This document shows positions 35,457 through 57,608 of a stretch of DNA of 64,000 nt, piece after piece. The stretch's first letter is position 1; the number at the start of each line of letters is the position of its first letter. The notes beneath the pieces were generated by a model. That model was not told where the DNA came from. It did no database searches and was given only the letters and a program-made list of their open reading frames with translations. Made by a program: the position numbers and the translations under genes. Source of the stretch: Candidatus Komeilibacteria bacterium (GTDB lineage Bacteria; Patescibacteriota; Patescibacteriia; UBA1558; GWA2-36-10). The stretch lies in assembly GCA_018656065.1 (NCBI GenBank), contig JABHZY010000024.1, positions 75,980 through 139,979 of the forward strand, given 5' to 3'.

Positions 35457-35530
35457 TCGGAGATCGTCTAATGGTAGGACACCTGGTTTTGGTCCAGGCA
35501 ATCGGGGTTCGATCCCCTGTCTCCGAGCCA
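35457..35530 (+). tRNA. tRNA-Gln (anticodon UUG), CCA encoded
   Basis: Manual fold: acceptor TCGGAGA/TCTCCGA, D-arm GTCT/GGAC, anticodon stem CCTGG/CCAGG with loop TTTTGGT, T-arm CGGGG-TTCGATC-CCCTG, 3' GCCA; 74 nt. Confidence 0.75.
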
Positions 35531-35580
35531 AATCGAGATAAGTTATTACGCACGAGACGCGTAGTATATAATATATTAAA

Positions 35581-35610
35581 AAACAACCACTTTATGAGGT
35601 TGTTTTTTAA
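35581..35610. terminator. bidirectional terminator (A-run, AACAACC/GGTTGTT hairpin, T-run)
   Basis: Serves the tRNA on the plus strand and the 35616-36089 gene on the minus strand. Confidence 0.55.
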
Positions 35611-35615
35611 CTCTA

Positions 35616-36089
35616 TTATTTACAAATACCAGTTGAGCCATATGCATATGTACCAAATGCCATACCACCCTCGCTGCGTGCAAAATGACCATTATTTTTA
35701 TCAACATGAAAAATGTCACTAGCACCACTTGAATAAGCTATCATCCCAACTACAATTATATTCTCATCTTCAAATAATTTACTTATCGGTGCCTTGCCTC
35801 CTAGCGAGCCAAGCATTTGCGGATTTTTAGTATTAAGGTCAAGAAGTCCTATTACTGTGCCTACACTATTCTCATTGCTAGAATAAATTATTTCACATGA
35901 TAAATCATTATTCATAATAAAAAATTTATTATCTGGCAAATCCATATAGAGAATATCTCTCTCAATAGGCTCATCAACTCCCCCTCCTTTATAAAAAGAA
36001 ACTACTGCAATAAAAGTTATAATAAGTAGAAAACTCATGACCTTGATAATGGTCATCTTAGTTTTTTTACTGTTTTCTTTTTCGCTCAT
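35616..36089 (-). CDS. hypothetical membrane-anchored protein
   Basis: ORF; N-terminal TM helix. Confidence 0.3.
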   Translation of the reverse strand: MSEKENSKKTKMTIIKVMSFLLIITFIAVVSFYKGGGVDEPIERDILYMDLPDNKFFIMNNDLSCEIIYSSNENSVGTVIGLLDLNTKNPQMLGSLGGKAPISKLFEDENIIVVGMIAYSSGASDIFHVDKNNGHFARSEGGMAFGTYAYGSTGICK

Positions 36090-36103
36090 ATATTTATTTT
36101 AAT

Positions 36104-36718
36104 TTATATGAATTTTTTAAAATCTTCAATTTTTATAATTTTAATTTCTACATTTTTAAATTTAATCTTATTCTGTGGAATATTAATTACAGATTTATGA
36201 CCAAAAATAAGAATTGGTTTAATAAACTTACTAGACTCTTCCCCAAATTTTATATCTTTAACTAAGCTACAATGCATTAATAAATCATTTAATACTTTTG
36301 TATGGTCATAATTAGAAACTTTGAGTAAATTATTTTTAAAGGTTACTAATCCAGCCCAATTTTTTACTTCTATGCCAAAATATTTATTATTTTTAGTTAC
36401 TAAAAAATCTAAATCTCCATATTTAGTATTAATATTTTGTTCGTAATTAATATCTAATTTTTTTAATTTTTGAGCTAGCTGTGTTTCTAAATCAAGACCT
36501 TTGCTATAAGGTGTTTGTTTTTTTATGTATCCTTCTGTAATATTAATTATTGCTATACTAATAATAGCTAATAATATCCCTATTAAAAAACTACCTATTT
36601 GGCTTTCAAATGGATAAATATGTCCTATAAAAAATGCACATACTATTAATAAAGCCACTATAAAATTATTATAGAGCTTATATTTTGTAATTTTACCCTC
36701 TAGATAATCGTTTGCCAT
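36104..36718 (-). CDS. NERD-domain (nuclease-related) protein with two N-terminal TM helices
   Basis: Motif GLDLETQLAQKL...YGDLDFLV...FGIEVKNWAG matches the NERD signature. Confidence 0.6.
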   Translation of the reverse strand: MANDYLEGKITKYKLYNNFIVALLIVCAFFIGHIYPFESQIGSFLIGILLAIISIAIINITEGYIKKQTPYSKGLDLETQLAQKLKKLDINYEQNINTKYGDLDFLVTKNNKYFGIEVKNWAGLVTFKNNLLKVSNYDHTKVLNDLLMHCSLVKDIKFGEESSKFIKPILIFGHKSVINIPQNKIKFKNVEIKIIKIEDFKKFI

Positions 36719-36725
36719 ATATTTA

Positions 36726-36965
36726 TTAAAAAATAATAATCACATTTATTGCTGTAGCTACGATTAGAAGAATTGTAAGTCCAATCATAATCCAAGACTG
36801 AATGGTCATAACCCTTGATTGTTTGTCTAACATTTGCGCAAGACCTATCATAGCATAAGCACTCGCTTCACTAGTTCTATTTAGTATTTTATTATCTTCC
36901 CTAGAATAATAATCATCGTTCATAGTTTCTAGTAGTTTTTTGGCTACTTTAGTTTCTTCATTCAT
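36726..36965 (-). CDS. hypothetical small TM protein
   Basis: ORF, 79 aa. Confidence 0.25.
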   Translation of the reverse strand: MNEETKVAKKLLETMNDDYYSREDNKILNRTSEASAYAMIGLAQMLDKQSRVMTIQSWIMIGLTILLIVATAINVIIIF

Positions 36966-36974
36966 ATACCTATT

Positions 36975-37277
36975 TTAATTATTTTTATCCACCAAAATAA
37001 AATAAAAAATTACCACTACAATATCAAGCATTATCCACAAACTTTTTTCATACAAATGAATCGGTAAAAATGGATTAAACAACGCAGCGATAGCAATAAG
37101 TAACCAAAACCAACCATCTGTTCTTTTCTTAATCCCATACAAGGTATAGGCATAAAAAGCGGATACACCTGTTACAATAAATTTTAAAAAATTATAATAA
37201 CCATAAGGAACATCAAAAAAAGATACTACAATTATTATTGTTGCTATTATTGCTGGAGTTTTGCTAATTTTTTTCAT
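36975..37277 (-). CDS. hypothetical membrane protein
   Basis: ORF, 100 aa, 3 TM. Confidence 0.25.
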   Translation of the reverse strand: MKKISKTPAIIATIIIVVSFFDVPYGYYNFLKFIVTGVSAFYAYTLYGIKKRTDGWFWLLIAIAALFNPFLPIHLYEKSLWIMLDIVVVIFYFILVDKNN

Positions 37278-37286
37278 AAATTCTAA

Positions 37287-37781
37287 TTATTCTTCAGAAA
37301 TATAATCAATAATACTTTTAAATGTAGAAAAATTATCTGAACTATCTGCATCTTCAGAAATTTGAGCACAAATCATTATCCAAAGTTGCATATTTTTTTT
37401 AGTATTATCTTCACCTTTAAACATTTCTAATAAAATTTCAATTTTACGTTTTTCTAAGCCAAGAACCACAGAACACGATTCAATTAATTTATCCGCGTTA
37501 TATTCTCTGTCATTTGAAGATACATCCCATATTATAATTGTGTTCCATATATTTTTTAATTTATTAGAATTCAAATCAGATATACTTGTTCGAAACATGC
37601 CTTCATCTGGATGAAACATTATCAAAATCATTTGTTGAGCTAAAAAGAAACCCCTGCGTATTATATTCTGCGATGGAGTATCACTTAAACCAAAAATCTT
37701 AGAATCTAACTCATTGGACATTGGAGTATTTATAGAGTTAAATTTATAAATTTTACCACTTAAAGCGCTGAATAATCCCAT
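37287..37781 (-). CDS. hypothetical protein (MGLF paralog 1)
   Basis: Shares the N-terminal MGLF and the F(F/L)xxQM(I/T)L block with the adjacent gene. Confidence 0.3.
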   Translation of the reverse strand: MGLFSALSGKIYKFNSINTPMSNELDSKIFGLSDTPSQNIIRRGFFLAQQMILIMFHPDEGMFRTSISDLNSNKLKNIWNTIIIWDVSSNDREYNADKLIESCSVVLGLEKRKIEILLEMFKGEDNTKKNMQLWIMICAQISEDADSSDNFSTFKSIIDYISEE

Positions 37782-37786
37782 ATAAT

Positions 37787-38332
37787 TTATTGATTATTTT
37801 TTATATATGTATAAACACCATTTGTTAATGTGTTGGATAGTGTTGTAATCAAATACATAGCAAAAAAAGGATCTAATTCATCCACATAACCAAACTCATG
37901 CATAAAAAGTCTTGTATATTTTATTGCGTACTTACTAGATTCCTCTTCTGTTGAAGGAAAATTTTTAGATAGATTATTATACTTAGATAAGTCTTTATCT
38001 GTGAAATCAAAAACATTTTTAATATGATCCAATTTTATTACTCCAGATCCATGATTTTTGTAACTTAAAAAATAGTACATAAAACATAGTTTAAAAAGAT
38101 TCTTTACTGTTTCTTTATCTAGATTATCCTTTTCATTTGAAATATAATTAAAACCTTCGTCTTTTTTTTCTAAAAGTAACTCCAAGGTCATCTGTGCTCC
38201 CATTAAAAAAGCTTCAGAAAAAATTTCAATATGCCTGTTATTTGATTCTCTGGGAATCCTTTTAATATAAAAACTGATTATACTATCAATTTCATCAATT
38301 TCAGAAAATTTATTTTTTTTAAATAACCCCAT
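37787..38332 (-). CDS. hypothetical protein (MGLF paralog 2)
   Basis: Tandem paralog of 37287-37781. Confidence 0.3.
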   Translation of the reverse strand: MGLFKKNKFSEIDEIDSIISFYIKRIPRESNNRHIEIFSEAFLMGAQMTLELLLEKKDEGFNYISNEKDNLDKETVKNLFKLCFMYYFLSYKNHGSGVIKLDHIKNVFDFTDKDLSKYNNLSKNFPSTEEESSKYAIKYTRLFMHEFGYVDELDPFFAMYLITTLSNTLTNGVYTYIKNNQ

Positions 38333-38343
38333 ATAGTCTATTT

Positions 38344-38877
38344 TTATATTAACTTTTTATAAATATTATGATTCAAATCGTCAAAAACAACAAAAATTAT
38401 TTCATCAAATGCATCTTGATATTTTTCAATATACTTATTCACTATATCCATAGCTACTTTAGCTGCCTTATCCTTAGGATAACCATACACACCTGTTGAT
38501 ATAGCTGGAAAAGCTATTGTTTTTAAATTATTTTCTCTAGCTAAATCTAAACTTCCTTCGTAACAACTAATCAATAAACCCTTTGGATCATCATCTGAGG
38601 CATAAATTGGTCCTACAACGTGTATTATATGTTTAGCCGGAAGATTATAACCTTTTGTTATTTTAGCACCTCCTACATGACAACCACCTAACCTAGCGCA
38701 TTCTTCTAATAAGTCTTCCCCAGCCGCCATATGGATAGCTCCATCGACTCCTCCTCCACCTAATAGTGTTGGATTAGCTGCATTTACTATAACATCTACA
38801 TTAATAGTTGTTATATCACCTTTTTTTATTGTTATTTTAGTGTTCATAATATTAATACCAACAAATATCTTGCTCAT
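38344..38877 (-). CDS. macro domain protein (ADP-ribose binding/hydrolase, MacroD/YmdB-like)
   Basis: Motifs VDVIVNAANPTLLGGGGVDGAIH and HVVGPIY; the true start is probably ATG 38847. Confidence 0.8.
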   Translation of the reverse strand: MSKIFVGINIMNTKITIKKGDITTINVDVIVNAANPTLLGGGGVDGAIHMAAGEDLLEECARLGGCHVGGAKITKGYNLPAKHIIHVVGPIYASDDDPKGLLISCYEGSLDLARENNLKTIAFPAISTGVYGYPKDKAAKVAMDIVNKYIEKYQDAFDEIIFVVFDDLNHNIYKKLI

Positions 38878-39757
38878 TAGTAATAGCCTTTTTGTCTATA
38901 AGATATTTTATAGCCTCATCATGACTACCCAAAGTATCAATCAATCCATTATCTAGAGCCATCTGTCCTAATACTGTAGAGCCATCTGCTAATTGTGTAA
39001 CTTTATCAACTTCTAGCCCTCTGTTTTGAGCAACCTGATCAATAAAATATCTATACATAATATCTATATCTCTTTGCCACAAAGCCTTTTCTTCTTCCGT
39101 AATTATTTTGTCTGGATCTCCAGTGTCTTTGAATTTTCCAGAATTGAGTTCTATATAAGTAATGCCTTGTTCTTCGTTTTGTTTAGTATAATTTAAATGA
39201 GAAGCTGTAATACCAATACTACCAACATCTGATAAAGGTGAAGCAATTATATAATCAGCTCCTGTCGCCGCCAAATAAGCTGACGACGCAGCTCCATCTC
39301 TAATAACCACCACTGTTGGTTTTGTAGCTTTCTTAAGAGCGTTAGCTATTTCTTCTCCAGCTACAGCACTTCCCCCATATGAACTAATTTCTAGAATTAT
39401 AGCCGAAACACTACTAGACTTTTCTGCATCATTGATTGCCCAAAGAATATCATCAGCTGATGTACTAATAGACACTAGCTCTTCTGACTCATCTCCTGTT
39501 ATCATGGCATATGTAGTCAATTCTCCATTAAGCATTATACCCATAACTGAACAATAGTCTTGATAATCTTCTTCTACATATTCTTCATCATAATATCCAT
39601 AATCATCCTCATCCATCTCATCAAATAAAGATATGAGTTGATTCTCTGCATCATATTTAATTATTATAATAGATGCTGATATAAAAATTAATCCCGCTAT
39701 TACAGCAAAAAATACAGAAAGAGCTATAAAAATTCTTTTCCAATTTAGTTTTGTCAT
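38852..39757 (-). CDS. S49-family peptidase (SppA-like / phage prohead-protease-like), N-terminal TM plus acidic linker
   Basis: Crotonase/ClpP-fold S49 motifs: SYGGSAVAGEEIANAL, DGAASSAYLAATGADYIIASP, DVGSIGI. Confidence 0.65.
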   Translation of the reverse strand: MTKLNWKRIFIALSVFFAVIAGLIFISASIIIIKYDAENQLISLFDEMDEDDYGYYDEEYVEEDYQDYCSVMGIMLNGELTTYAMITGDESEELVSISTSADDILWAINDAEKSSSVSAIILEISSYGGSAVAGEEIANALKKATKPTVVVIRDGAASSAYLAATGADYIIASPLSDVGSIGITASHLNYTKQNEEQGITYIELNSGKFKDTGDPDKIITEEEKALWQRDIDIMYRYFIDQVAQNRGLEVDKVTQLADGSTVLGQMALDNGLIDTLGSHDEAIKYLIDKKAITNEQDICWY

Positions 39758-39943
39758 AATTCTATTTTTTATTTATAAAAGATTCTAAATTATCTATTTT
39801 ATACTTCTTATTAAAATCAACTATAGAAATATTATTAATAATTTTTTTGATTAAAACTTCATCAGAAGGACGAGCAGTTGTTGCAATAAAATAAATACCA
39901 ACATCTTTATCTTCCTATGCAATCTTAATGAATATTCATATAT

Positions 39944-40093
39944 CTACTTCTTGCCCGGCTTAACTTTATAAACCAGAAGTTCACGCTCCAAGCTCAAAGC
40001 GATTATTTCTTTATCTATAATCTTTATACGTTTCATGGTCTCTAAAAATTCATCAGACCTTAAACGTTTTACTTTTGTATTTATTTTTTTCAT
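39944..40093 (-). CDS. small ORF (49 aa), unknown
   Basis: The ORF runs from ATG at 40093 to TAG at 39944 (MKKINTKVKRLRSDEFLE...). It lies between the REC and S49 peptidase genes and is below the track threshold. Confidence 0.2.
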   Translation of the reverse strand: MKKINTKVKRLRSDEFLETMKRIKIIDKEIIALSLERELLVYKVKPGKK

Positions 40094-40094
40094 A

Positions 40095-40508
40095 TTATCC
40101 AAATTTAGGTTTATAGTTTATTGGGTCTTCAAAGTATTCTTTTATTTTAGCTATAAATTCTGACGGTATATGATTAGCTGTTACAAAATAATCAGTAACT
40201 CCTAATTCTTTACCTTTAATTATATCTTCTTCCTGTGATAGATTTGTCAGCATGAAGATTGGAATATTTTTAGTTCTCTTATCTTTCATTAATATTTTTG
40301 TAGCCTTATATCCATCCATTACTGGCATGATAATGTCCATAATTATTAAATCAGGATTAATTTCTAAAATGTATTTTACAAATTTATCAGCTTTATCTGT
40401 CTCTGGATGTTCCTTCCAAATATGTTCAAAATTATTCTGTTTAAATTTTACTTGATACATCTTACCTAAAAAAGTGTCATCATCAAATTGTAAAATTTTC
40501 TTTACCAT
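40095..40508 (-). CDS. receiver-only response regulator (REC domain)
   Basis: Acidic pocket FDDD, phospho-acceptor-like IMDIIMP, MLTN; 137 aa, no output domain. Confidence 0.65.
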   Translation of the reverse strand: MVKKILQFDDDTFLGKMYQVKFKQNNFEHIWKEHPETDKADKFVKYILEINPDLIIMDIIMPVMDGYKATKILMKDKRTKNIPIFMLTNLSQEEDIIKGKELGVTDYFVTANHIPSEFIAKIKEYFEDPINYKPKFG

Positions 40509-40525
40509 AATATTATCATAAAAAA

Positions 40526-40894
40526 TTAGTATTTTTTAAATATATTTCTTAATAACACTGGTATTTTATTAAGTGGCCAGAAAATGACAAATCTTGGATA
40601 TGGTCTAATTATTAAATATATAACTAAGCTAATAATAAAAATAATAAACCACCCCCAGGCTGCACCTTCTTCATCACTACAATATCTTGAACAAGAATTG
40701 TAAGAAGTAATAAAAATAAAAGCTAAAAATAATGATAAATAAACAAATAACCCCAATACTGCCTGAAACTTAATTTTATGTTTTTTAACTTTTTTTCGTT
40801 CTGACGTGGATTTTTGGGCAAAAACCCCTTCTCCACAGTACCCGCAAAATGAACTAGTGTGAGCTATATTTTTATTGCATTTAGAACATTTCAT
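40526..40894 (-). CDS. zinc-ribbon membrane protein (paralog 3)
   Basis: N-terminal CSKC-x13-CGYCG, then 2 TM helices. Confidence 0.45.
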   Translation of the reverse strand: MKCSKCNKNIAHTSSFCGYCGEGVFAQKSTSERKKVKKHKIKFQAVLGLFVYLSLFLAFIFITSYNSCSRYCSDEEGAAWGWFIIFIISLVIYLIIRPYPRFVIFWPLNKIPVLLRNIFKKY

Positions 40895-40897
40895 ATA

Positions 40898-41422
40898 TTA
40901 ACTTTTTATAAATGTATTTTTTGCTCTTTTTGATTTCCATAGATACAAAGACCATACAATGGTGTACAAAACTTGTTTTATTGTATCTTCTCCGTATTCT
41001 CCGTCATAAATAAAAATCATGATCAAAAGAACACTACCTATAACGTTTATAATTAAAAACCATTTCTTAAAAGACTTTTTCTTTTTGACCATCAAATAAA
41101 TTAACCACGCAGAAGCAATGATAGCTACAGTACTACCACCTAAAGAATATGCATCAAAACCAAAAGCATCTAGCTCTGTAAAATAATAAAACACCTCAAT
41201 AATTGGACTAATAAAAACTCCAAATGCTAAAAGAGCTAACCAGCCACCAAACCCTTCTTGTTTGTTTTTTTCTTCATTAATAGATTTTATTTGTTCGATG
41301 TGTGATTCAGTTTTTTTAACACCACACTTACCACAAAATTCATGATCTTCTACAATATTATTGCCACATTTATGACATAACATAGATTTTATATTAATAA
41401 TTATTAAATGTATTTTTACCAA
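40898..41422 (-). CDS. zinc-ribbon membrane protein (paralog 2; likely start ATG 41383)
   Basis: CHKC-x11-CGKCG, then 3 TM helices. Confidence 0.45.
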   Translation of the reverse strand: MVKIHLIIINIKSMLCHKCGNNIVEDHEFCGKCGVKKTESHIEQIKSINEEKNKQEGFGGWLALLAFGVFISPIIEVFYYFTELDAFGFDAYSLGGSTVAIIASAWLIYLMVKKKKSFKKWFLIINVIGSVLLIMIFIYDGEYGEDTIKQVLYTIVWSLYLWKSKRAKNTFIKS

Positions 41423-42164
41423 CGGTATCTATATCAATATTCCCATTATAACTAGTTTCTAACTCTAACTCCCAAATAGTATATTCGGAACTTGTTGTGT
41501 CGAAATCAAACGTACCATCAAATTCAAAAAAACTTGGTTTTAAAGTAAATTCTTTTGAATAAGAATCCCAATCATTTCCCTGAGTTGCAATGACTTTATA
41601 GTTACCATCAGATATACCTGTGACTGTAAAAATATTATTTTTTTTAACATAAAAAGTAATAATTGACTTGTTAGTTCTCGTACTAACAAGTTTTATTACA
41701 GCGTCCTCATTAGTTCCATTATCTATAGTTAGCTCTCCCTCGCCACTTAAATAATAGCTAACAGAATCAATTGTAAAACCATTAGTTAAAGATCTAATAT
41801 TGGCAGGTGGTTTTACATAAGTAGGAGTATTTACATTTTTATTATTCTCAGATACATAATTACTATCTGAATCATTAGATGCCGCTATAATAATAATGAC
41901 TATTACTATAACTAGTATTATGAAAAATTTAGAATATCTCATTATCCAATCTTTAAATTCTCCTGAGGGTTTATTATCTGTTGTCTTTTTGGCTTTATAA
42001 ACACTAGATTCATTTTGTGCCAAGCTAGTATCTACTGGTGAGCCACAGTCTGTACAAAAACTAGAATTAGCTTCTATAAGTTTACTACAATTATTGCAGT
42101 ATTTTGTCACTTCTACATCATCATTTGTGGATAGAAAATCAGTTTTTAAATCTAATTTTTTCAT
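41394..42164 (-). CDS. zinc-ribbon membrane protein with extracytoplasmic domain (paralog 1)
   Basis: CNNC-x11-CTDCG, 1 TM, about 150-aa C-terminal beta-rich domain. Confidence 0.45.
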   Translation of the reverse strand: MKKLDLKTDFLSTNDDVEVTKYCNNCSKLIEANSSFCTDCGSPVDTSLAQNESSVYKAKKTTDNKPSGEFKDWIMRYSKFFIILVIVIVIIIIAASNDSDSNYVSENNKNVNTPTYVKPPANIRSLTNGFTIDSVSYYLSGEGELTIDNGTNEDAVIKLVSTRTNKSIITFYVKKNNIFTVTGISDGNYKVIATQGNDWDSYSKEFTLKPSFFEFDGTFDFDTTSSEYTIWELELETSYNGNIDIDTVGKNTFNNY

Positions 42165-42179
42165 AATTTTATAATTATT

Positions 42180-43259
42180 TTACCATCTCTCTAAATGAGC
42201 TAATGACTCATATCGATTAATTTCATTAATATCAATTGGATTATAGCGTTTTATGTCATCTTCAATCATTTTTTGATCTATATATGGCTTATCATCATTC
42301 GCTGCACTTCGAGAAACATTTTCAAGTATACCCTCTATAATATCTGAACTAGCATAATTTTCAGTTAAATTAGCTAATGTATCAAAGTTAATTTTTTTAC
42401 TTGTTGGTCTGCCAGATAAACCTATTTTAAATAATTCTTTTCTTGCTTCAAAATCAGGTGGTGATACATATATTCTTTTGTCCATTCTACCAGAACGTAA
42501 TATTGCCATATCAATTCTATCTGGATAATTTGTTGCAGCTACAACTAAAATTTTGTTATCACTTGCGTCATTTAATTGCATGAGAAACTCATTAATTTCT
42601 TCTTCTTTATGAGATGAGGAATCCTGTAAACCATCTCTTTTGGGGACCAATCCGCTAATCTCATCAAGAAAAATAATTGCTGGGGCATTCATTTTTGCCA
42701 TTTCAAATACTTTACCAATATTACTAACTGAACCATGAATAAAAGGCGTCGCAAGATCAGAATGTTTTATTTCATAATATTTATACTTTAGTTCTTCGGC
42801 TAATTTCCTAACTATAAATGTTTTACCGCAGCCGGGTGGTCCATATAGTAAAACTCCATTAGGAATTGACACTTTAAATTTTTTAAAACGTTCTGGTTGT
42901 AAAAGCGGGTTAATAACGTCTTTTAACAATAATTCTTTAAGTTTTCTCATCCCAGCCACACTTTGAAAGCCTTTTAATATAGTTAAGTCTTCTATAACGG
43001 ATGTTATTTTTTCATTAGAATGTTCCTTAACAATTAATCCGAGATAACTTTTATCACCATATTTTATTTTCAATAAATCTTTTTTTCTACTTTCATTAAC
43101 TATATCTTCATGAATTAAATTCGTAAATAAATATAAAAAATCATCATCTGATAATTCGTATATTTCTGTAAAATAAAGTTTTTCTATTCTACGAACCACA
43201 AGAACATCTTTCTTTATTTTAAACCCATTATGTAGTGTTGGTTTATTTTGTATAGTCAT
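42180..43259 (-). CDS. classic-clade AAA+ ATPase with unknown N-domain
   Basis: Walker A GPPGCGKT, Walker B IIFLDEISGL, second region of homology ATNYPDRIDMAILRSGRMDKRIYV. Confidence 0.8.
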   Translation of the reverse strand: MTIQNKPTLHNGFKIKKDVLVVRRIEKLYFTEIYELSDDDFLYLFTNLIHEDIVNESRKKDLLKIKYGDKSYLGLIVKEHSNEKITSVIEDLTILKGFQSVAGMRKLKELLLKDVINPLLQPERFKKFKVSIPNGVLLYGPPGCGKTFIVRKLAEELKYKYYEIKHSDLATPFIHGSVSNIGKVFEMAKMNAPAIIFLDEISGLVPKRDGLQDSSSHKEEEINEFLMQLNDASDNKILVVAATNYPDRIDMAILRSGRMDKRIYVSPPDFEARKELFKIGLSGRPTSKKINFDTLANLTENYASSDIIEGILENVSRSAANDDKPYIDQKMIEDDIKRYNPIDINEINRYESLAHLERW

Positions 43260-43261
43260 AA

Positions 43262-44914: not shown

Positions 44915-44915
44915 A

Positions 44916-47417: not shown

Positions 47418-47420
47418 AAT

Positions 47421-47936: not shown

Positions 47937-47961
47937 ATATATTAATAAATTATTAGTAAAT

Positions 47962-50738: not shown

Positions 50739-50892
50739 ACCTTAATTGATGACACATTTCATAGCTTCTGCTAAGCACTACGTTGTCGACAACTTGTTGG
50801 CAACTTTCCTTAGCAAAACATCAAATAAGCGTTATAATATAGACGTAAACATACATAATATGTATAATTGAAATAATTATTAAATTAAAAAT

Positions 50893-51696
50893 ATGTCAGG
50901 ATTTTTTGCATTTTTATTATTTTTATCATTACTTAGCATACCTATTGGATTGATAAAGCCTAGTCTTTTTAATAAACTATTTAAAAAAGATATGACTAGG
51001 AAGAAATTGACTATCATTTTTGTTATTACTAGCTTTGTATTATTTTTTGCTTTTGGGTCTACTGTTGATTCTACCGTTGACATTCAAGATAATAAAACTA
51101 TTGATGTTCAAGATGATAAAATAGCTCTTAAAGAAAATAATGAGCCCACTGACACTCAAAAAGAACCTAACGAAGAAGAAAAAAATACAGTAGTAAATGA
51201 AGAATCTGAAGAAACGAATAATACAAACGAAGAAGAAAACACAGTATTAAATAATAAATCCGAAGAGTCTAATACTAACACAGATGAAAATGATATTACT
51301 CCTCCACCAACCCAAGTAGAAGAGCCAATAATAGATCCAGCTCCTCAAACAACTAGGGAAAGCGCATTAGTAATTTTAAAAGAAAATGCTAAACAAGAAT
51401 GGGGAGAAGACTACAGTATGGTTCAATATGAATATGAAGGCCAAGTAGAAGCCTATGATTGGGTTATGGCTAAAACCGAATATCCAGATATTATGAATAA
51501 GGCCAAACAAGAATGGGGAAATGATTATAAAATGGTTAAGTATGAATATGAAGGTCAAGTAGAAGCCTATGAATGGATAGAAGCCCAAACAGAATATCCA
51601 AACATTATGAGTAATGCTAAACAAGAATGGGGAGATGATTATAAAATGGTTAAGTATGAGTACAATAAGCAGGTTGAAGCTTATGATAACTTATAA
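50893..51696 (+). CDS. membrane-anchored acidic protein with three 39-aa tandem repeats
   Basis: TM. E/N/T-rich low-complexity region. Three copies of AKQEWG-DY-MV-YEYEGQVEAY-W--A-TEYP-IM. Confidence 0.4.
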   Translation: MSGFFAFLLFLSLLSIPIGLIKPSLFNKLFKKDMTRKKLTIIFVITSFVLFFAFGSTVDSTVDIQDNKTIDVQDDKIALKENNEPTDTQKEPNEEEKNTVVNEESEETNNTNEEENTVLNNKSEESNTNTDENDITPPPTQVEEPIIDPAPQTTRESALVILKENAKQEWGEDYSMVQYEYEGQVEAYDWVMAKTEYPDIMNKAKQEWGNDYKMVKYEYEGQVEAYEWIEAQTEYPNIMSNAKQEWGDDYKMVKYEYNKQVEAYDNL

Positions 51697-53133
51697 TATC
51701 CATACTTCTGGCATTGGCTGATTTAAATCTCTAGTGATCTCATTAATTAACAGGGAAAAAGCATCAGATAAATCATCATGCTTCTCACTACCAAATCCTA
51801 ATAGTTGCTGTCTTAGTGTATCTATTCCTTGTCTAGGAAATAATACATTACCAGCTTGTATCTGATGTGTAGTTGCGGATAGACGTGATCTTTTGTCTGC
51901 TCCAGCTACAGGAACACCCACTACGTTAATATGACTATATTCTGATTGTAAATTCTGCACTAAGTATTCTTGGGCCGCTACACTTTCAACATAAAATGTT
52001 GCACCAGATCCAAATGTATTATGAAGTAATAATGTTTCCTGTATAATCTCAGGAAAAGTTATCCTCTTATTTATAGGATTAGGTAAGATATATATTTTTG
52101 CATCTTTCCCATAACCATAAACTTTTGCACAAACCATCGCTGTACAATCAGCAGTGGTTTTTTGAGATATAGCTAAATCAATTCCTATCGCAACACTTCT
52201 TAAATTTCTTTCGTTTGGTAGTTCATCATAATAATGTAACCAACCCTCTTGAATCAACTGGCCCTCATCAGATATTATTCTTAACATGTATTCTCTATTC
52301 CAAGCAACTTCATTTCCTATCTTCCTACATTCCATCTCAACATCTTTATCTGTAGGATATTTACCAGGCCAAAGACAATTACCCTTTTCATCAACTAAAG
52401 GAAAATAAAGGAATCTCCCATCTGTACGATTATTATCAATGTCACTCTTGAGCCTCATGAGAAGCGAGTCCTCATGTAGTAAATTACCAACCACTACCAA
52501 TCTTGCGTCTTTATCTCCAGCAGGAACCACCTCTCCTTTTAACCATTGATAGGTCTTGTTCCTACCTTCTAAGGTCTTTGCTGATGTCATATTTTCAACA
52601 TCGTCACAAATAATTAAATCTGGTCTATGCTCATGATGCCTAATTCCACGAATACTTTGTTCAGCGGAAGCAACAGTAATACGAGCATTGGTATTTGAGA
52701 ATACTAGAGAATGTGAACCCCATTCATCACTATCTTCACGAAATGGTCCTAAATCTCTTTTTAATAGGTCATTATCTTCTAGCTCTCGACGTAGATTCAT
52801 CATATGTTGTTTTGCCTGAGCCTGCGTTTGGCAAAAAATAGTAACAAATCTTTTCTGTTGGCTTCCAAGGATGGCCCAAATTGGGTAAGCAGTGGTAACC
52901 ATTGTAGATTTACCCGACCCTCTAAAGGCTACTACAAATAGATCTTCATTATCACTTTTTTCCAGTACATGGATGATTTCTTTCTGGAAGTCTGCTGTTG
53001 CATATTTTATATAATGTGCAAAATAAAAGTGAAAGAAGTAAGAAAAGCTTTCTTTAGTTATTGCTACTCTTACTTTTTTATCCTTTGTCATTTGATCTAC
53101 TAGCTCTTGTGGTATCATTTTTTTCTTTAACAT
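51691..53133 (-). CDS. phage terminase large subunit
   Basis: Walker A FRGSGKST, Walker B LIICDDVE, C-terminal RNase-H-like nuclease (AIGIDLA). Confidence 0.8.
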   Translation of the reverse strand: MLKKKMIPQELVDQMTKDKKVRVAITKESFSYFFHFYFAHYIKYATADFQKEIIHVLEKSDNEDLFVVAFRGSGKSTMVTTAYPIWAILGSQQKRFVTIFCQTQAQAKQHMMNLRRELEDNDLLKRDLGPFREDSDEWGSHSLVFSNTNARITVASAEQSIRGIRHHEHRPDLIICDDVENMTSAKTLEGRNKTYQWLKGEVVPAGDKDARLVVVGNLLHEDSLLMRLKSDIDNNRTDGRFLYFPLVDEKGNCLWPGKYPTDKDVEMECRKIGNEVAWNREYMLRIISDEGQLIQEGWLHYYDELPNERNLRSVAIGIDLAISQKTTADCTAMVCAKVYGYGKDAKIYILPNPINKRITFPEIIQETLLLHNTFGSGATFYVESVAAQEYLVQNLQSEYSHINVVGVPVAGADKRSRLSATTHQIQAGNVLFPRQGIDTLRQQLLGFGSEKHDDLSDAFSLLINEITRDLNQPMPEVWIL

Positions 53134-53527
53134 ATTCTTTATTGTTATCTGATAAAATATCCGCCAATTGCAGAGCTTTGTGAACTACTGCAGTTTGTGA
53201 CGGAGTAAGTTCTCCTGAATCTTCAAATTTAGAAGTAACTTCTACTTTGTCTCTAAAACGTGGATTTCGATGATTAAGCCAAAACCTTATAGCAGAAAAA
53301 TTTTTTTCTTTTATAAGAGTCAATAATTGGCTTTCAGACATATCATTAACCAAGTCTTCACCTTCGACTAATGCCTCATCCATAGCTTTAGAGAATTTTT
53401 TATCGTCTCGCTTCCAACGATAGATACTATTTCTTGATATGCCAGTTTTCTCGCAAGCTACTTGCACTATTGGAACTTTTTTTAGCTCCGCAAGAAAGCT
53501 GTCTCTAATTCTATTTTTCTTAGACAT
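53078..53527 (-). CDS. HTH protein, terminase small subunit-like
   Basis: N-terminal helix-turn-helix (CEKTGISRNSIYRWK). Position is immediately upstream of TerL and overlaps it by 56 nt. Confidence 0.4.
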   Translation of the reverse strand: MSKKNRIRDSFLAELKKVPIVQVACEKTGISRNSIYRWKRDDKKFSKAMDEALVEGEDLVNDMSESQLLTLIKEKNFSAIRFWLNHRNPRFRDKVEVTSKFEDSGELTPSQTAVVHKALQLADILSDNNKEYVKEKNDTTRASRSNDKG

Positions 53528-54794
53528 GATCCACCTTTGCCTTTCTACCGGTTAACTTCTCATATCTTCTGATAGTCAAATCACAAAATATAGGTTCTAG
53601 CTCAATTGCATAAACTTTTCGCTTTAGTTGTTCACTAGCAATAATAGTACTACCTGAACCAGAGAATGAATCTAGAATGATATCTCCTGGCCTACTACAA
53701 CGCCTTATAGCCTTCTCATGAAGCTTTGGTGGCTTACTAGTCGCATGTTCATATTTTTGACCAGATAAACGCTTTACAAGCCATATATCAAGCTCGTCAG
53801 AAGCTTCGGCAAATAGGTTGTTACCTGTAGTCATCTCTTTATTCAATACTTCGTTGAGATTGTTAATATTAGGTGTAATATATGGTTTACCCAGCACTCC
53901 ATATACCACAGGCTCATAACATTTATTGAAGGCGACCTTTGGCGTGGGATTCTGTGAATTTTTTAACCACAAACACACTCGCTTATTCACAATACCGAGT
54001 TCTCTGTATAATTCTTGTATCAAACCAATATAAGTTTGATCACACCAATAGAAGATGTGACTATTGGCAGCTGTAACCGATAAAGCAGTAACTAAAGTTT
54101 CTTTTATAAAGTTTTTATACTCTTCATAAGTGCGTTTATCATTTACATTACCACCATAATCTTTCTTACCTCCAATTCCCTTAGAATAATCTAGATTTAT
54201 ATTGTAAGGTGGATCACTATATATCATTGAAGCTTTTTCATCTCCAAACAATCGTTTGAGATTTTTTGGATCAGTAGAACTACCACATAACAACTTATGT
54301 GGTCCTAAATAAATTAAGTCACCCAGCTTTGTTTTTGGTGTCTTAATTTTCTTAAGTTCTTCTTCGACATCAAAATTCTCATCTTTGACTTCTAGCTCCT
54401 CGTCCCATAAATGAGCCAGGTCTATTTGATCAAAACCTATATCAACTAACAGATCGAGATCAAAAGACTTTAATTTTTCAAAATCCCAAGAGCCACCTAA
54501 GGTGTTGCTAGCTATAAGGTAACGCTCGGATTCTTCTTTGGTTAGTTGTCTGTTAGGAATACGAACATCAATAAGCTCTTCGCCTCGACCTAATAGCTGT
54601 AGAGCCTTGATTCTCTGATGGCCAGCTAATATTTTGCCATTTAGATCAATAGCTGGTATTTCCACTAAATTGAACTTTTTCAAATTCTTTTGTAAATCTG
54701 ACATTTGCTTATCAGAAATAGTACGAGGATTAACGTCTTGTGGAATAAGATCATTTACTCGTTTTGACACTGTGTGCCATTTCAATTTTTCCAT
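53520..54794 (-). CDS. ParB-like nuclease domain fused to beta-class DNA N6A/N4C methyltransferase
   Basis: ParB N-domain (EIPAIDLNGKILAGHQRIKA). DPPY motif (IYSDPPYN) precedes the FxGxG motif (ILDSFSGSGST). Confidence 0.8.
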   Translation of the reverse strand: MEKLKWHTVSKRVNDLIPQDVNPRTISDKQMSDLQKNLKKFNLVEIPAIDLNGKILAGHQRIKALQLLGRGEELIDVRIPNRQLTKEESERYLIASNTLGGSWDFEKLKSFDLDLLVDIGFDQIDLAHLWDEELEVKDENFDVEEELKKIKTPKTKLGDLIYLGPHKLLCGSSTDPKNLKRLFGDEKASMIYSDPPYNINLDYSKGIGGKKDYGGNVNDKRTYEEYKNFIKETLVTALSVTAANSHIFYWCDQTYIGLIQELYRELGIVNKRVCLWLKNSQNPTPKVAFNKCYEPVVYGVLGKPYITPNINNLNEVLNKEMTTGNNLFAEASDELDIWLVKRLSGQKYEHATSKPPKLHEKAIRRCSRPGDIILDSFSGSGSTIIASEQLKRKVYAIELEPIFCDLTIRRYEKLTGRKAKVDHV

Positions 54795-54878
54795 AATTTT
54801 ATTATTTAATTATTAATTAAAAAACCGTAATCGACTTTGATTACAGCTTATAATAACTAATAAAAGTATGGGTGGGGT

Positions 54879-55712
54879 TTAAGGAGTATCTTTAAACCCT
54901 ACAGATTTTTTCAGTTTCTCAATGTTACTAACTATATTTCTAATAGTCCCCCAACTAGAAATTCCGTACTTTTCTCTTATTACTTTTTCAGTTTCATGAT
55001 CCGTTCTTTCATTATACCAACATTTATCTCTTTTATATTTTGAAGTTGGTTTTTTTCTAAACTCTTTATAAATATTATATATCTCCAAATCTCTATGAAA
55101 ATTTTTATATTCCTTGTGTTTTACTTTATATTTTGACAAAGTAGCTTGTTCTTCTTTAATTATTGGCCATAATTTTTCAAGATCTTCTTTTCTTGTATGT
55201 GGTAATATTTTAATAAATAATTCGGCTTCACCTATTTTTTCATTCCTTTTCCAAGTAATAATTAATGGGGTATTAGTAAACTCTCTTTTATTGAAAAAGA
55301 TGTATTCGATAACAAAATCTTTAAATCTCCTATAGTTTTTATCCTTTCTTTTAATGTTATATTCTCTAAGAAGATCATCTATATCACTACCATATACAGG
55401 AGGTAATTCTCTATACTGAAGTTTTTCTATCTTATCTTGTTCTTTTTTACTCCAACTATCCTTACCTCTAGTTATTTTACTAATTTTATTTTTAAATTTT
55501 TCGCTATATTCAATCTTAGCTCTACAGTCAAAGTATCTATCATTCCATTTTAGATATTCTTTGTAGCTTTTAAATCCATTGTCTGGTATTGGACAACCAA
55601 ACTTATTGAACTTTTTAATTAATTGATCTATAAATTTAATAAATTTAGGATCAGCCATTATAAATTCAGCCTTATAATAATCTGTATTATGTATTTTTCT
55701 TATCTTCTTCAT
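54879..55712 (-). CDS. hypothetical basic protein
   Basis: ORF, Lys/Arg-rich; no recombinase motifs found. Confidence 0.3.
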   Translation of the reverse strand: MKKIRKIHNTDYYKAEFIMADPKFIKFIDQLIKKFNKFGCPIPDNGFKSYKEYLKWNDRYFDCRAKIEYSEKFKNKISKITRGKDSWSKKEQDKIEKLQYRELPPVYGSDIDDLLREYNIKRKDKNYRRFKDFVIEYIFFNKREFTNTPLIITWKRNEKIGEAELFIKILPHTRKEDLEKLWPIIKEEQATLSKYKVKHKEYKNFHRDLEIYNIYKEFRKKPTSKYKRDKCWYNERTDHETEKVIREKYGISSWGTIRNIVSNIEKLKKSVGFKDTP

Positions 55713-55752
55713 AACTTGATTTTGCCACTTTTTAGGCGTAAAGTAAAGTCAT

Positions 55753-56259
55753 ATGGGATTATCAGATAAAACAATAAAAGAGTACCAAAGGATATTCAAG
55801 GAAAGCTACAATCATCCTGTCTCCTATGAAAAAGCTGAGGAATATGGGAATAGATTAGCTGACTTTTTCCAATTAATAGTTGATATGGATATGGCTAATG
55901 AAGAGAAAAAGGCTCGTTTAAAAGAATCTCCCAAAGGATTTCCTTTAGATGATGGCTCTACTTATAATTGTTGCGTGTGTTATAGACAAGTAACTGGTAA
56001 AGAAGGTTGGTATGATAAATATGGTAATAAGTGCCTAAATTGCCAAAAAGCCCTGGATAAAAAGGTAATTCCAGGCTATATTTGTAATGATAGAGATAGC
56101 TTCTATTTAATCTGGGAATTAAAAGATAAATTTGGCATTCATCACACTACTGCCAGAAAGATGGTTAGAGAAGGTAAATTAAAAGCTAGAATTATACAAA
56201 ATGAGCATGGTAAGCTTCATGAGTATGTGTTTATAATAAAAGAAAATAAAAAATTATGA
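55753..56259 (+). CDS. hypothetical protein with Cys cluster
   Basis: Cys cluster CCVCYRQ...CLNCQ. Overlaps the next gene by 4 nt. Confidence 0.3.
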   Translation: MGLSDKTIKEYQRIFKESYNHPVSYEKAEEYGNRLADFFQLIVDMDMANEEKKARLKESPKGFPLDDGSTYNCCVCYRQVTGKEGWYDKYGNKCLNCQKALDKKVIPGYICNDRDSFYLIWELKDKFGIHHTTARKMVREGKLKARIIQNEHGKLHEYVFIIKENKKL

Positions 56260-57059
56260 AAATTGTTTATATAGATGAATCTGGTAAAGATAAAAAAAGT
56301 CCTTTTGCTGTTCTGTGTGGTATCTCATTTGATCATAATAGAATGAGTAAAACAAAAAAAGATTGGCTTCATTTTATTAAATGGTTAAACAAAGAGGGAG
56401 TAAGAACATCTGAAATGCATACTTCTCAATTTTTTGCTGGCAAAGGTTGTTGGTACACTCTTAAGGGTGATAAAAGAAAAAAAATTACCGAAGGTGTAAT
56501 TCATTGGATTAATAAAAGGGCGCATGAATTTTGCGTTGTTGCCGCTGATAAAAAAATTTTTACTGCTAAAAAAGATGAAAAAATATCTGTATATAAAAAT
56601 ATCTGGTTTTTCTTATCTACGCATTTAATATTTGCCTTTAGCAAAAGATATCAGGGAGAAAATGGTACAAAGGGAGACTTTATAGGTATATTTGATGAAG
56701 GGTGTGTCGGATCAGAGTTTAGTGATTTTATTTTGTCAGATGACGCAAATACTTTATTTAAGGAATATACAGGTGTTAAAAAATGTTTAATTAAGTTGAG
56801 CGATGCTCCACTTTCAGCTAACTCAAAACATTCTAGTCTAATTCAAATAGCTGATTTTATAGTTTTCTTTGTTAGAAGAAAAATAGAATTAGAATATAAT
56901 ATGAAAGAAGAATATTTAGGTGAAAAAAAGGATATTGATATTTTTTATAAAGGTCTTTTAAAAAATAAAATGCAACAAAGATTTATTTATAAAAAAGCTG
57001 GCAGATCTAATATTGAAGATATTTTTTATTCAACAGCGCCAGATTTTTTAAAAAAATAA
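56256..57059 (+). CDS. DUF3800-family protein
   Basis: N-terminal KIVYIDESGKD (the YIDESG hallmark). Confidence 0.5.
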   Translation: MKIVYIDESGKDKKSPFAVLCGISFDHNRMSKTKKDWLHFIKWLNKEGVRTSEMHTSQFFAGKGCWYTLKGDKRKKITEGVIHWINKRAHEFCVVAADKKIFTAKKDEKISVYKNIWFFLSTHLIFAFSKRYQGENGTKGDFIGIFDEGCVGSEFSDFILSDDANTLFKEYTGVKKCLIKLSDAPLSANSKHSSLIQIADFIVFFVRRKIELEYNMKEEYLGEKKDIDIFYKGLLKNKMQQRFIYKKAGRSNIEDIFYSTAPDFLKK

Positions 57060-57224
57060 ACATTACACCTTACTGTAACTATATAACGTAAATACGTGTC
57101 ACTTTTGTCACTTTTTAGTAGCGCTCGAGACGCGTCGAAATACTATCATAAAAATACTCCCAAAAGCCTTACAGGGCTTGATTCTAAAAAGTTCTAGCAC
57201 GAGACGGCGAGCCAAATAAAAAAA

Positions 57225-57250
57225 CATCAACCTCTGTTGGTGCTTTTTTA
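57225..57250. terminator. bidirectional terminator
   Basis: A7, catcaac-ctct-gttggtg hairpin, T-run. Confidence 0.5.
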
Positions 57251-57304
57251 TTTATGTGTTTGTGATATACTTATTGTATGAATAAATATTAAATAAAGTT
57301 AAAA

Positions 57305-57550
57305 ATGGATAAATACGAATGTTATAATTGCAAAAAGATATCTAACCCTGATGATCCAGATACTAATTGGATTGTACTACATAAAAGAAATCATAAAAGA
57401 TTATTGGGTTGTGATTGTGGATATGGATTATATCCAGGACAGATTACTTCATTAGTTGCAAGTCCTGATGAAGTTGAAGATCAAAAAGAACAATTGATAA
57501 AAGCAGGTGTAAACCTTGATAAAAAGAAAAAAGCTGCTAAGAAAAAATAA
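57305..57550 (+). CDS. small zinc-finger-like protein with Lys-rich tail
   Basis: CYNC...CDCGYG; 81 aa. Last gene before the attR-like repeat. Confidence 0.35.
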   Translation: MDKYECYNCKKISNPDDPDTNWIVLHKRNHKRLLGCDCGYGLYPGQITSLVASPDEVEDQKEQLIKAGVNLDKKKKAAKKK

Positions 57551-57574
57551 TCTATTTTCTATCACTCAAATCAT

Positions 57575-57608
57575 GGCAATCGGGATTTGATCCCCTATCT
57601 CCGAACCA
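57575..57608 (+). repeat. imperfect direct repeat of the tRNA-Gln 3' end (attR-like)
   Basis: ggcaatcgggatttgatcccctatctccgaacca against the tRNA 35497-35530 ggcaatcggggttcgatcccctgtctccgagcca: 30/34 identical. Confidence 0.6.

Follow-up and report, generated by a model that had tools for sequence, protein, structure and literature searches.

How a 22-kb stretch of DNA that carries a large serine recombinase (LSR) came to lie between a tRNA-Gln gene and a second copy of that gene's 3' end is the question raised by a locus of a Candidatus Komeilibacteria bacterium (assembly GCA_018656065.1, contig JABHZY010000024.1). We analyzed the 64,000-nt stretch at forward-strand positions 75,980-139,979 of this contig, hereafter referred to as the window, and give all positions in its own numbering (Table 1). 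An earlier model-made note on this DNA, the original prediction, had taken the tRNA copy for one end of an integrated element. We found that the LSR element spans 35531-57217 (~21.7 kb) and ends before that copy is reached. We interpret it as a member of a Patescibacteria family of elements, inserted by its LSR at the 3' tip of tRNA-Gln and probably packaged into helper-phage capsids, and put the probability of this reading at roughly 75%.

The tRNA-Gln(UUG) gene is the single tRNA of the window according to ARAGORN and Rfam (RF00005), and it is intact despite the integrated element. Its 3' 34 nt (35497-35530, GGCAATCGGGGTTCGATCCCCTGTCTCCGAGCCA) reappear at 57575-57608 (GGCAATCGGGATTTGATCCCCTATCTCCGAACCA) with exactly four mismatches, which confirms the 30/34 duplication reported at the outset. 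This copy is unique: an exhaustive scan of both strands of the window found no other at up to 10 mismatches, shuffled sequence gave 0 matches to the repeat at ≤ 3 mismatches (100 shuffles), and the similarity ends sharply at both edges of the repeat. At each of the four differing positions, the right-hand copy shows a G/C to A/T transition, and these changes disrupt T-stem and acceptor pairs. We also considered positions 57575-57608 as a second, degenerate tRNA gene and ruled this out, because no tRNA model matched within 56950-57700 even at E ≤ 10 (Rfam, permissive threshold). The right-hand copy is therefore a tRNA fragment, and the original view that no full tRNA gene stands there was correct.

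One explanation of this arrangement is a 22-kb island bounded by the two 34-nt repeats and inserted by a tyrosine integrase that has since been lost, with the LSR and terminase genes as passengers. The duplication is real and unique, it runs from the T-arm to the CCA end as in a classic tyrosine-integrase footprint, and its all-GC-to-AT differences fit an old, decaying copy. The closest relative of the locus, L020 from Ca. Parcubacteria SI075_bin20, speaks against it. There the gene order is murA-ctpA-rplI-pyrG, element, tRNA-Gln(UUG), which is the same site as in the window, where the flank to the right of the 34-nt repeat consists of a terminator and then the host genes f223, pyrG, rplI, ctpA and murA. 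The original prediction had regarded the repeat as the element's integration footprint and had set a relative with the same gene order and no repeat against that view; L020 is such a relative, with the same core at the pyrG/tRNA-Gln site and a best second match to the tRNA 3' end of 16 mismatches.

The comparison with L020 also locates the element ends. The host backbones of the two loci are 72% identical at the nucleotide level vs. 84-92% for the element parts that they share, namely the tRNA plus 58 nt (35397-35588, 89%), the LSR and its flanks, the block from the methyltransferase through the TerS-like gene to the N-terminal part of the terminase large subunit (TerL), and the non-coding segment 57059-57217. 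Similarity stops at 35588 in the tRNA-proximal end (P' arm), beyond which the cargo is unrelated, and at the end of that non-coding segment (P arm). In L020, the P arm ends in ...GCACGAGACGG-CGAGCCA (shorter form ...GACGG-CGAGCCA) and abuts the terminator that follows the 34-nt repeat in the window; the 391 bp at 57218-57608 are absent, and the conserved right end in the window sits ~390 bp inside the repeat. The 10-mer CGAGCCAAAT has exactly two copies in the window, at both predicted junctions. Because the L020 comparison and this 10-mer place the ends at the tRNA-tip core and at 57208-57217, the LSR element is 35531-57217. Integration at the tRNA-Gln 3' end, as originally proposed, is thereby retained, whereas the 34-nt repeats no longer serve as its boundaries.

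The wider family points the same way. None of 47 related loci duplicates the tRNA 3'-end 34 nt (best second matches 8-17 mismatches, unless another tRNA gene is involved), so the repeat of the window is not a family feature. No tyrosine recombinase (Phage_integrase) was matched by Pfam among 26 of the larger open reading frames (ORFs; ≥ 75 aa) of the interval, nor did PHROGs reveal one among 20 of them, in agreement with the prediction that such an integrase is absent and that the LSR is the only recombinase between the repeats. Together with the 10-nt core at the attP junction described below, these results make insertion by a lost tyrosine integrase very improbable. The apparent paradox of a long repeat beside a serine recombinase is also gone, since the LSR leaves an identity of 7-10 nt and the 34-nt copy belongs to a separate scar. 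This scar, referred to as X, was already downstream of the tRNA when the LSR element arrived, and could be the remnant of an older, mostly deleted insertion of another kind. A homologue search for its origin found relatives of its small ORF g81 elsewhere in unrelated contexts and without a tRNA. Rfam, run on the P arm and scar X at a permissive threshold, returned terminator-like noise only and no tRNA or known RNA family.

We further searched 241 million metagenome records with a single pattern covering all four possible junctions. In one metagenome contig (L100), the P arm is fused via the core to the P' arm (98% identical to that of the window over 65 nt), with unrelated cargo on both sides. 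This junction is the predicted attP and stems either from an excised circle or, which would be less decisive, from a tandem array. The same scan recovered the attL (L102) and attR (L104) of the window's own population. The original suggestion to look for an excised form was thus answered in part, through the L100 junction, with neither such a junction for the window's population nor an attB. A fuzzy version of the attP pattern had no match in the related loci collected. An independent assembly of the same population (L002, ERZ23491529 scaffold_5327) breaks at window position 57220, 3 nt from the core, as expected if reads had alternative continuations there (occupied and empty, or circular).

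The attachment sites follow a logic that can be read across the family. At the tRNA-proximal end, relatives usually carry TCTCGTGC-TA-GCACGA at 2-5 nt from the tRNA tip. At the far end, host sequence is followed by a 4-10-nt block that matches the tRNA 3' terminus exactly, a spacer of 3-5 nt and CTCGTGYTAGRACC. When the far arm was aligned without gaps to the reverse-complemented tRNA, with TAGRAC anchored on the T-loop TCGAAC, the tip block fell in register in 14/14 loci, which cover Gln, Ser, Trp and Glu targets. The far arm therefore appears to mimic the tRNA arm of attB, with tip and T-loop (TAGRAC vs. TCGAAC) at the same spacing. An inverted half-site, CTCGTGYTAGSAC, is found on both attP arms of relatives at ~3-5 nt from the core, and the motif TCGTGC lies within 45 nt of the LSR-facing tRNA in 23/47 loci vs. 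2/35 for other tRNAs. The circular form would accordingly present inverted half-sites around a short core, which is the pattern of LSR sites: the core is 10 nt in the window and 4-10 nt in relatives, half-sites occupy both arms, and long repeats are lacking.

In the far arm, the stretch that separates the tip block from TAGRAC (TAGAAC) is non-tRNA sequence; the crossover must therefore lie in the tip block, and we rejected the T-loop-like block as its position. The invariant 20-nt motif in the P arm was likewise rejected as an att site, as it lies ~100 nt inside the element end and sometimes abuts a divergent start codon. In the mechanism that we propose, the LSR would join attP, formed by the two element ends in the circle, to attB, formed by the tRNA acceptor and T-arm and the downstream terminator. 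The predicted attP of the window reads ...AAAGTTCTAGCACGAGACGG-CGAGCCAAAT-CGAGATAAGTTATTACGCACGAGACG..., and the predicted attB reads tRNA-Gln ...CCCCTGTCTC-CGAGCCAAAT-AAAAAAACATCAACCTCTG.... Crossover would take place in the last 7-10 nt of the tRNA, CGAGCCA[AAT], a position that explains both the intact tRNA and the very short length of the direct repeat.

The recombinase itself has the complete architecture of a large serine integrase: a resolvase catalytic domain with the nucleophilic serine, a Recombinase domain and a zinc ribbon. It matches phrog_95 (integrase, 5e-65) and the solved SPbeta (YokA) and TP901-1 integrases in the PDB, with residues 25-377 aligning to the SPbeta integrase, and R27-K28-S29 is invariant in 9 family members. 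These features suggest that it is the integrase of the element and would catalyze the attP × attB reaction.

Next to the LSR lies a compact packaging-type module consisting of a ParB-like nuclease domain fused to a DNA methyltransferase, a TerS-like helix-turn-helix protein and TerL. The Walker A, Walker B and acidic nuclease residues of TerL are ≥ 95% conserved across 38 full-length TerLs of the element family, and the TerS-like gene is present in 53/90 related loci, where it invariably separates the methyltransferase from TerL or the LSR. The terminase genes named in the original prediction were thus recovered by profile (phrog_38, phrog_4044 and phrog_309). We detected no portal, capsid or tail match in the interval by Pfam (26 larger ORFs) or PHROGs (20 of those), so the profile search for divergent structural genes that the prediction had proposed left its view of a missing virion module unchanged. 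The ORFs between TerL and LSR in relatives gave no structural match, and no portal, capsid or tail cluster appeared among all ORFs of 90 related loci. As a positive control, the same PHROG search found portal (1e-96, 1e-107), protease and major head protein (5e-55) genes beside the outgroup TerLs of L148 and L149. The core is mosaic relative to L020: nucleotide identity is 84-88% across the methyltransferase, TerS, the LSR and the N-terminal two-thirds of TerL, whose C-terminal (nuclease) third is replaced together with the following ORF (window 51691-52216 and 50893-51696; L020 9374-9944).

Three origins had been offered for a terminase without structural genes: a decayed prophage, a satellite and a non-phage island with a captured packaging module. 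A decayed prophage would be a once-complete temperate LSR phage in which deletions removed the genes for portal, capsid, tail and lysis. TerL, TerS and the ParB-methyltransferase are indeed typical of the start of a late operon, the nearest outgroup TerLs (36-37% identical; L148, L149) reside in real tailed phages, and the loss of TerL in some relatives shows that decay happens. Of the features of a tailed prophage, however, the element has TerL and TerS and lacks portal, major capsid, tail and lysis genes, and no structural-gene fragment was found in any locus examined. Moreover, dozens of independent loci show the order methyltransferase-TerS-TerL-LSR, and the catalytic motifs of TerL are conserved. 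Deletions in separate lineages would not arrive at one compact layout with an intact TerL; hence decay is a highly improbable origin, contradicted by the recurring four-gene core, and a satellite fits best among the three.

The recurrence of this core was seen in both GTDB and IMG/VR. When one genome of each GTDB species was scanned with an LSR profile, 580/600 candidates were confirmed, so the LSR family has at least 580 members as a lower bound; the best 80 of these are almost all labelled Patescibacteria, i.e., candidate phyla radiation (CPR) bacteria. TerL and LSR queries of IMG/VR returned loci at 45-73% identity with the order ParB-methyltransferase, TerS-like, TerL, (cargo), LSR, and the TerLs there that are ≥ 42% identical all stand in the four-gene arrangement except L139 and L141, in which TerL alone was detected. 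Clustering of all ORFs of 90 related loci revealed only four widespread genes: the LSR (87 loci), TerS-like gene (53), ParB-methyltransferase (52) and TerL (42). The next most common clusters were a LexA/S24-like repressor (15) and reverse transcriptases (8). The four genes are collinear in ~40 of the first 90 loci. The LSR usually lies ~100-250 nt from TerL. Dozens of loci share this layout, across an LSR identity range of 41-91% and with a variety of tRNA targets. One 55-kb IMG/VR contig (3300032737_000190; L128/L134) holds two separate methyltransferase-TerS-TerL-LSR modules, and several loci (L018, L019, L117, L119, L122, L143) carry two tandem, diverged TerL paralogues (~45-49% to that of the window) before the LSR.

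The association with tRNA genes is equally regular. In 47/47 loci with a tRNA beyond the LSR, the first such tRNA lies on the other strand and points its 3' end towards the LSR, at a distance of 0.12-10 kb. In a neighbour-joining tree, LSR clades follow the tRNA type (Arg, Asp/Asn, several Ser, Glu, Ser/Trp and Gln), with the LSRs of the window and L020 in the Gln clade, and the methyltransferase-TerS-TerL module is scattered across the tree. As clades track the tRNA while the module scatters, the choice of tRNA depends on the recombinase, and lineages gain and lose the packaging module. We found no description of the element family in the searchable literature, and the nearest deposited phage TerL and LSR are only ~24-28% identical to those of the window; the family is apparently large and undescribed, in the ultra-small bacteria of the CPR/Patescibacteria. 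Going further, these may be a phylum-wide unrecognized class, with an LSR clade specific for tRNA tips via a tRNA-mimicking attP arm and many members that are capsid-less satellites with their own terminase, a generalization that we hold tentatively, at slightly less than even odds.

A different view is that the locus is a fixed island at a tRNA hotspot, its LSR domesticated or dead and its cargo exchanged by ordinary recombination. All 15 contigs with the exact host flank protein f223 carry the element where long enough, with no empty site among them (an f223 homologue search for empty sites gave 3 matches only), and the tRNA-Gln region of relatives is rearranged, with an inverted tRNA and other small repeats. 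This view is hard to reconcile with the higher identity of the element (84-92%) than of the host (72%) between two lineages, the attP junction that exists in nature (L100), an intact LSR with invariant catalytic residues and identical 10-nt cores, and the co-variation of LSR clades with the target tRNA. The element is also absent from relatives whose pyrG is 85-91% identical, which have no module beside pyrG. These relatives bear on the original suggestion to look for an empty tRNA-Gln site, and answer it only in part: they lack the element, but are not clean empty sites because their tRNA-Gln is inverted relative to the flanks. On balance, a fixed island is quite unlikely. In close relatives without the element (L106 18438-18640, L107 and L109 16535-16740), the inverted orientation of tRNA-Gln holds with respect to both pyrG and the riboswitch flank, and after the gene comes a tandem repeat whose unit is made of the last 10 nt of the tRNA and ~30 further nt (CCCCGAGCCA-AGTGAACAAAGTGAAC...), with a second copy 85 nt on. 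This resembles one more small att-like duplication at that tRNA tip, and its sequence is similar to the GTGACA motif.

As a mobile LSR element, the locus would work as follows. A phage-derived operon (small ORF, ParB-methyltransferase, TerS-like, TerL and LSR) would be expressed from a conserved promoter/operator-like region, with cargo on both sides, and may be inducible under repressor control. The excised DNA would be packaged by its own TerS and TerL into the procapsids of a helper phage and so transferred, which amounts to a satellite lifestyle; variants without TerL or with the LSR alone would behave as plain cargo islands. Packaging by a helper is suggested by an intact terminase in the absence of capsid, portal, tail and lysis genes, and the element shares with satellites its integrated form in the ~10-20-kb class (21.7 kb), its own LSR and a TerS-like gene beside an intact TerL, although TerL alongside TerS is atypical for satellites. 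A satellite lifestyle is our best guess rather than a finding, at about even odds, since we identified neither a replication gene nor a directionality factor or helper phage, and many relatives do without the module.

Several observations weigh against the reading of the locus as a mobile, helper-packaged element. Concerning packaging, no helper phage is known and the role of TerS/TerL is purely inferred; 11 relatives lack TerL and ~30 have the LSR only, so the module is dispensable for persistence. Pfam found no primase, helicase or Rep domain in the element of the window, so that no replication module of the PICI type (phage-inducible chromosomal island) was recognized, and no recombination directionality factor was identified. 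Concerning mobility, L100 could be a tandem-array junction rather than an excised circle, a strict family attP pattern had no match in IMG/VR, and the four-junction pattern found no empty attB among the metagenome records; for the window's own population there is neither an empty attB nor a circular junction, all flank contigs being occupied. A clean before-and-after comparison is missing, since tRNA-Gln is reversed in the element-free close relatives, and the higher identity of the element than of the host may partly reflect stronger constraint rather than recent transfer. Finally, relatives have the palindrome TCTCGTGCTAGCACGA at the position equivalent to the P' half-site, and the P' arm of the window lacks it, its half-site being degenerate, as in L020.

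Some of these points would equally suit a mobile LSR island whose terminase does not serve its own transfer, with TerS, TerL and the methyltransferase as anti-phage or self-protection cargo, or inert, and with spread by other routes such as transformation, vesicles or episymbiont cell contact. Besides the optional terminase module, the missing attP-type contigs in IMG/VR and the lack of a known helper phage or pac site, the cargo of relatives looks defence-like (reverse transcriptases, TIR-like proteins, a nuclease, helicase-like, Sie-like and IetA-like AAA+ proteins). Against this, the ATPase and nuclease sites of TerL are strongly conserved and accompanied by a cognate TerS, which is what packaging needs, and known satellites redirect packaging with exactly such genes, as the comparison with tycheposons and PICIs indicates. 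IMG/VR viral flags are neutral here, because many loci are flagged only for their terminase-module genes. We regard a non-packaging island as unlikely, though to be taken seriously.

Among known systems, the closest concept is that of the tycheposons, described from Prochlorococcus and further marine bacteria (Hackl et al., bioRxiv 10.1101/2020.12.28.424599). They are integrative elements of 10-20 kb in hosts with streamlined genomes, use tRNA 3' ends with integrase clades that track the tRNA, and are modular, with a "PICI-like" type carrying a packaging gene and a pure cargo type that share an integration module. Where insertions follow one another at a single tRNA, partial-tRNA scars remain, comparable to scar X here. 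The present element shares the tRNA 3'-end integration and the match between clade and tRNA, but lacks the tyrosine recombinase and the hallmark replication genes. Tycheposons mostly use a tyrosine recombinase, leave partial-tRNA direct repeats and in most cases carry replication genes (primase, helicase), and their PICI-like members carry terS or a major capsid protein gene rather than TerS with TerL and a ParB-methyltransferase; the family described here has an LSR, a 4-10-nt core, no recognizable replication module and Patescibacteria hosts. In the survey of Hackl et al. (bioRxiv 10.1101/2020.12.28.424599), 910/937 integrase-carrying elements, mostly tycheposons, use a tyrosine recombinase.

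PICIs, capsid-forming PICIs (cf-PICIs) and PICI-like elements (PLEs) resemble the element in being (nearly) capsid-less, integrated and ~10-20 kb long, with their own integrase, packaging genes and a repressor-type switch, whose counterpart here is the LexA/S24-like repressor of 15 relatives. Classical PICIs are not known to carry TerL, cf-PICIs encode capsid and portal proteins, and PLE inserts into a repeat element instead of a tRNA gene; none of the three types is known among CPR bacteria. Classical PICIs encode either the small subunit of terminase or a predicted major capsid protein, together with genes for autonomous replication (bioRxiv 10.1101/2020.12.28.424599), and a large serine recombinase likewise serves the PLE of Vibrio cholerae (PMC6002521).

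The integrases of phiC31, Bxb1, TP901-1, A118 and SPbeta (SprA/YokA) share the three-domain architecture of the LSR as well as short att sites, inverted half-sites, a small crossover core and no long direct repeats. They differ from it in context, as here a whole clade of hundreds lies beside tRNA 3' ends with an attP arm that seems to mimic the tRNA. The filamentous phage phiRSM integrates at the 3' end of a tRNA-Ser gene; its integrase is small and resolvase-like, without Recombinase or zinc-ribbon domains or an accompanying terminase, and is unrelated at the family level. Serine integrases were not known for tRNA targeting, which was found for 14/297 candidates vs. 44.5% for tyrosine integrases and was described as previously unreported and in need of experimental proof (Mageeney et al. 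2020, PMC7192596). From the tRNA islands of tyrosine integrases, the element is set apart by the lack of a Phage_integrase match and by a 34-nt repeat that stands outside its end and is absent in L020. Taken together, it is a variant of the serine-integrase island and satellite-like kinds, with unusual and widespread tRNA-tip targeting.

Table 1. Coordinates of the integrated element, its attachment sites and the adjoining host features in the window
Feature	Position	Strand	Evidence or remark
tRNA-Gln(UUG), integration target (attB B-arm)	35457-35530	+	ARAGORN; Rfam RF00005, 58.2 bits
attL core CGAGCCAAAT, last 7 nt of tRNA + 3 nt, inferred crossover region	35524-35533	+	same 10-mer at 57208-57217; L020 comparison; P-arm register
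P' arm, tRNA-proximal element end	35531-35588	+	similarity to L020 and L100
P' arm degenerate half-site TCGAGATAAG	35533-35542		
P' arm GCACGAGACG	35550-35559		
Terminator hairpin after P' arm	~35576-35610		
Variable cargo, 17 ORFs	35616-49305	-	Pfam, PADLOC, PHROGs
LSR	49422-50738	-	Pfam Resolvase 8.9e-21, Recombinase 6e-14, Zn_ribbon_recom 2e-7
g267, window-specific insert between TerL and LSR, secreted/membrane repeat protein	50893-51696	+	ORF list, Pfam; absent from L020
TerL, terminase large subunit	51691-53133	-	phrog_38 5.9e-84
TerS-like helix-turn-helix protein	53078-53527	-	phrog_4044 9e-12, phrog_309 8e-9
ParB-like nuclease domain fused to N6/N4 DNA methyltransferase	53520-54794	-	N6_N4_Mtase 5e-31; phrog_498 5e-85; phrog_620 ParB-like 1e-20
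Accessory/regulatory block	54879-57059	mixed	Pfam
g277, directly upstream of methyltransferase	54879-55712	-	
g168, Zn-ribbon + weak HTH_17, divergent from g277	55753-56259	+	
DUF3800 protein, divergent from g277	56256-57059	+	
Conserved non-coding P arm	57059-57217	-	92% identical to L020, 88% to L100 (159 nt)
Invariant 20-nt motif AAAAGTGACAAAAGTGACA in P arm (core AAGTGACAAAAGTGACA, 57097-57113)	57095-57117		27 aligned loci; unique in window
P-arm half-site CTCGTGCTAGAAC	57191-57203		
attR core CGAGCCAAAT	57208-57217		within P arm
Scar X, outside LSR element, 391 bp	57218-57608	+	absent from L020, whose P arm adjoins host terminator
Terminator-like hairpin in scar X	~57218-57252		
Small ORF g81 in scar X	57305-57550		
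34-nt tRNA-Gln 3'-end copy in scar X	57575-57608	+	no tRNA model match
Host terminator hairpin, originally 3' of tRNA-Gln	57609-57639	+	90% identical to sequence after element end in L020
Host gene f223 (223-aa protein)	57646-58317		
Host gene pyrG	58322-59926		

The operon is preceded by an accessory block of variable composition. The gene directly upstream of the methyltransferase, g277, had no match in Pfam, PHROGs, PADLOC or a PDB sequence search; genes like it and like g168 occupy the same position in some relatives, and in 15 relatives a divergent LexA/S24-like repressor stands upstream of the operon instead. The 20-nt motif of the P arm is invariant over 27 aligned loci whose LSRs share only ~60-70% identity with that of the window, and ~14 nt after it follows TAtAAAGTTACA-N7-TGTaAC, an inverted repeat (GTTACA..TGTAAC). 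Minimal elements have the motif ~115-135 nt 5' of the LSR. We take it to be a probable promoter/operator; its conservation is unusually strict for a regulatory site.

The cargo is the most variable part of the element. In the window it encodes, in order, g157, a NERD nuclease-like protein, g79, DUF6804, g164, g181, a Macro domain protein, an S49 peptidase and a REC domain protein, followed by three Zn-ribbon membrane proteins, an IetA-like AAA+ protein, a 550-aa protein, an 833-aa Hsp70-like protein, g171 and a 447-aa Cys-rich secreted protein. This region is wholly replaced in L020 by ORFs of 1588, 192 and 1210 aa, and the cargo of other relatives includes reverse transcriptases, TIR-like and Sie-like proteins, a nuclease, a helicase-like protein and giant ORFs. 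PADLOC matched no defence system in the cargo, with only the AAA+ protein resembling IetA. Three of the cargo genes (42180-47417, minus strand), encoding the Hsp70-like protein (nucleotide-binding domain only, with a long C-terminal extension), the 550-aa protein, which is C-terminally membrane-anchored, and the IetA-like AAA+ protein, are flanked by Zn-ribbon membrane proteins and may represent an uncharacterized conflict or stress system.

Outside the element, two tandem c-di-GMP-II riboswitch aptamers were detected at 32995-33078 (74 bits) and 33166-33291 (49.7 bits, just below the gathering score). They are followed by a cassette reaching to 35400 with 47-53% GC in a genome of ~30% GC, comprising a 136-aa ORF, two mini-ORFs (40 and 21 aa) that both end in ..LIDL(F/W)WWLRK, a 47-nt repeat (83% identical) after each mini-ORF (33974-34020 and 34213-34259), and lastly a 235-aa lipoprotein-like ORF and a 78-aa ORF. 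These ORFs and repeats had no Pfam or Rfam match. The segment 32995-35400 looks like a foreign, c-di-GMP-controlled small-peptide locus directly 5' of tRNA-Gln. The window also contains a bacterial RNase P RNA class A gene at 9722-10060 (215.8 bits), an ordinary host gene.

Serine integrases are the main tools of genome engineering. A clade hundreds strong with a readable attP logic (tRNA-tip core plus CTCGTGYTAGSAC) would supply integrases with predictable, near-universal landing sites and a natural experiment in the re-targeting of LSR specificity. Should the phylum-wide generalization hold, no large group of serine integrases specialized on tRNA genes would have been seen before it, and a new satellite strategy would be indicated. 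A full terminase without a capsid would be an unusual form of helper-phage parasitism, which predicts matching phages of CPR bacteria. Since IMG/VR calls these loci viral only for TerL, counts of CPR prophages would be inflated. CPR/Patescibacteria have genomes of ~1 Mb, few known mobile elements and poorly known phages. The family looks like one of the main vehicles of their exchangeable cargo and, under the phylum-wide generalization, would constitute a major gene-shuttle and defence-island system in bacteria regarded as poor in mobile elements.

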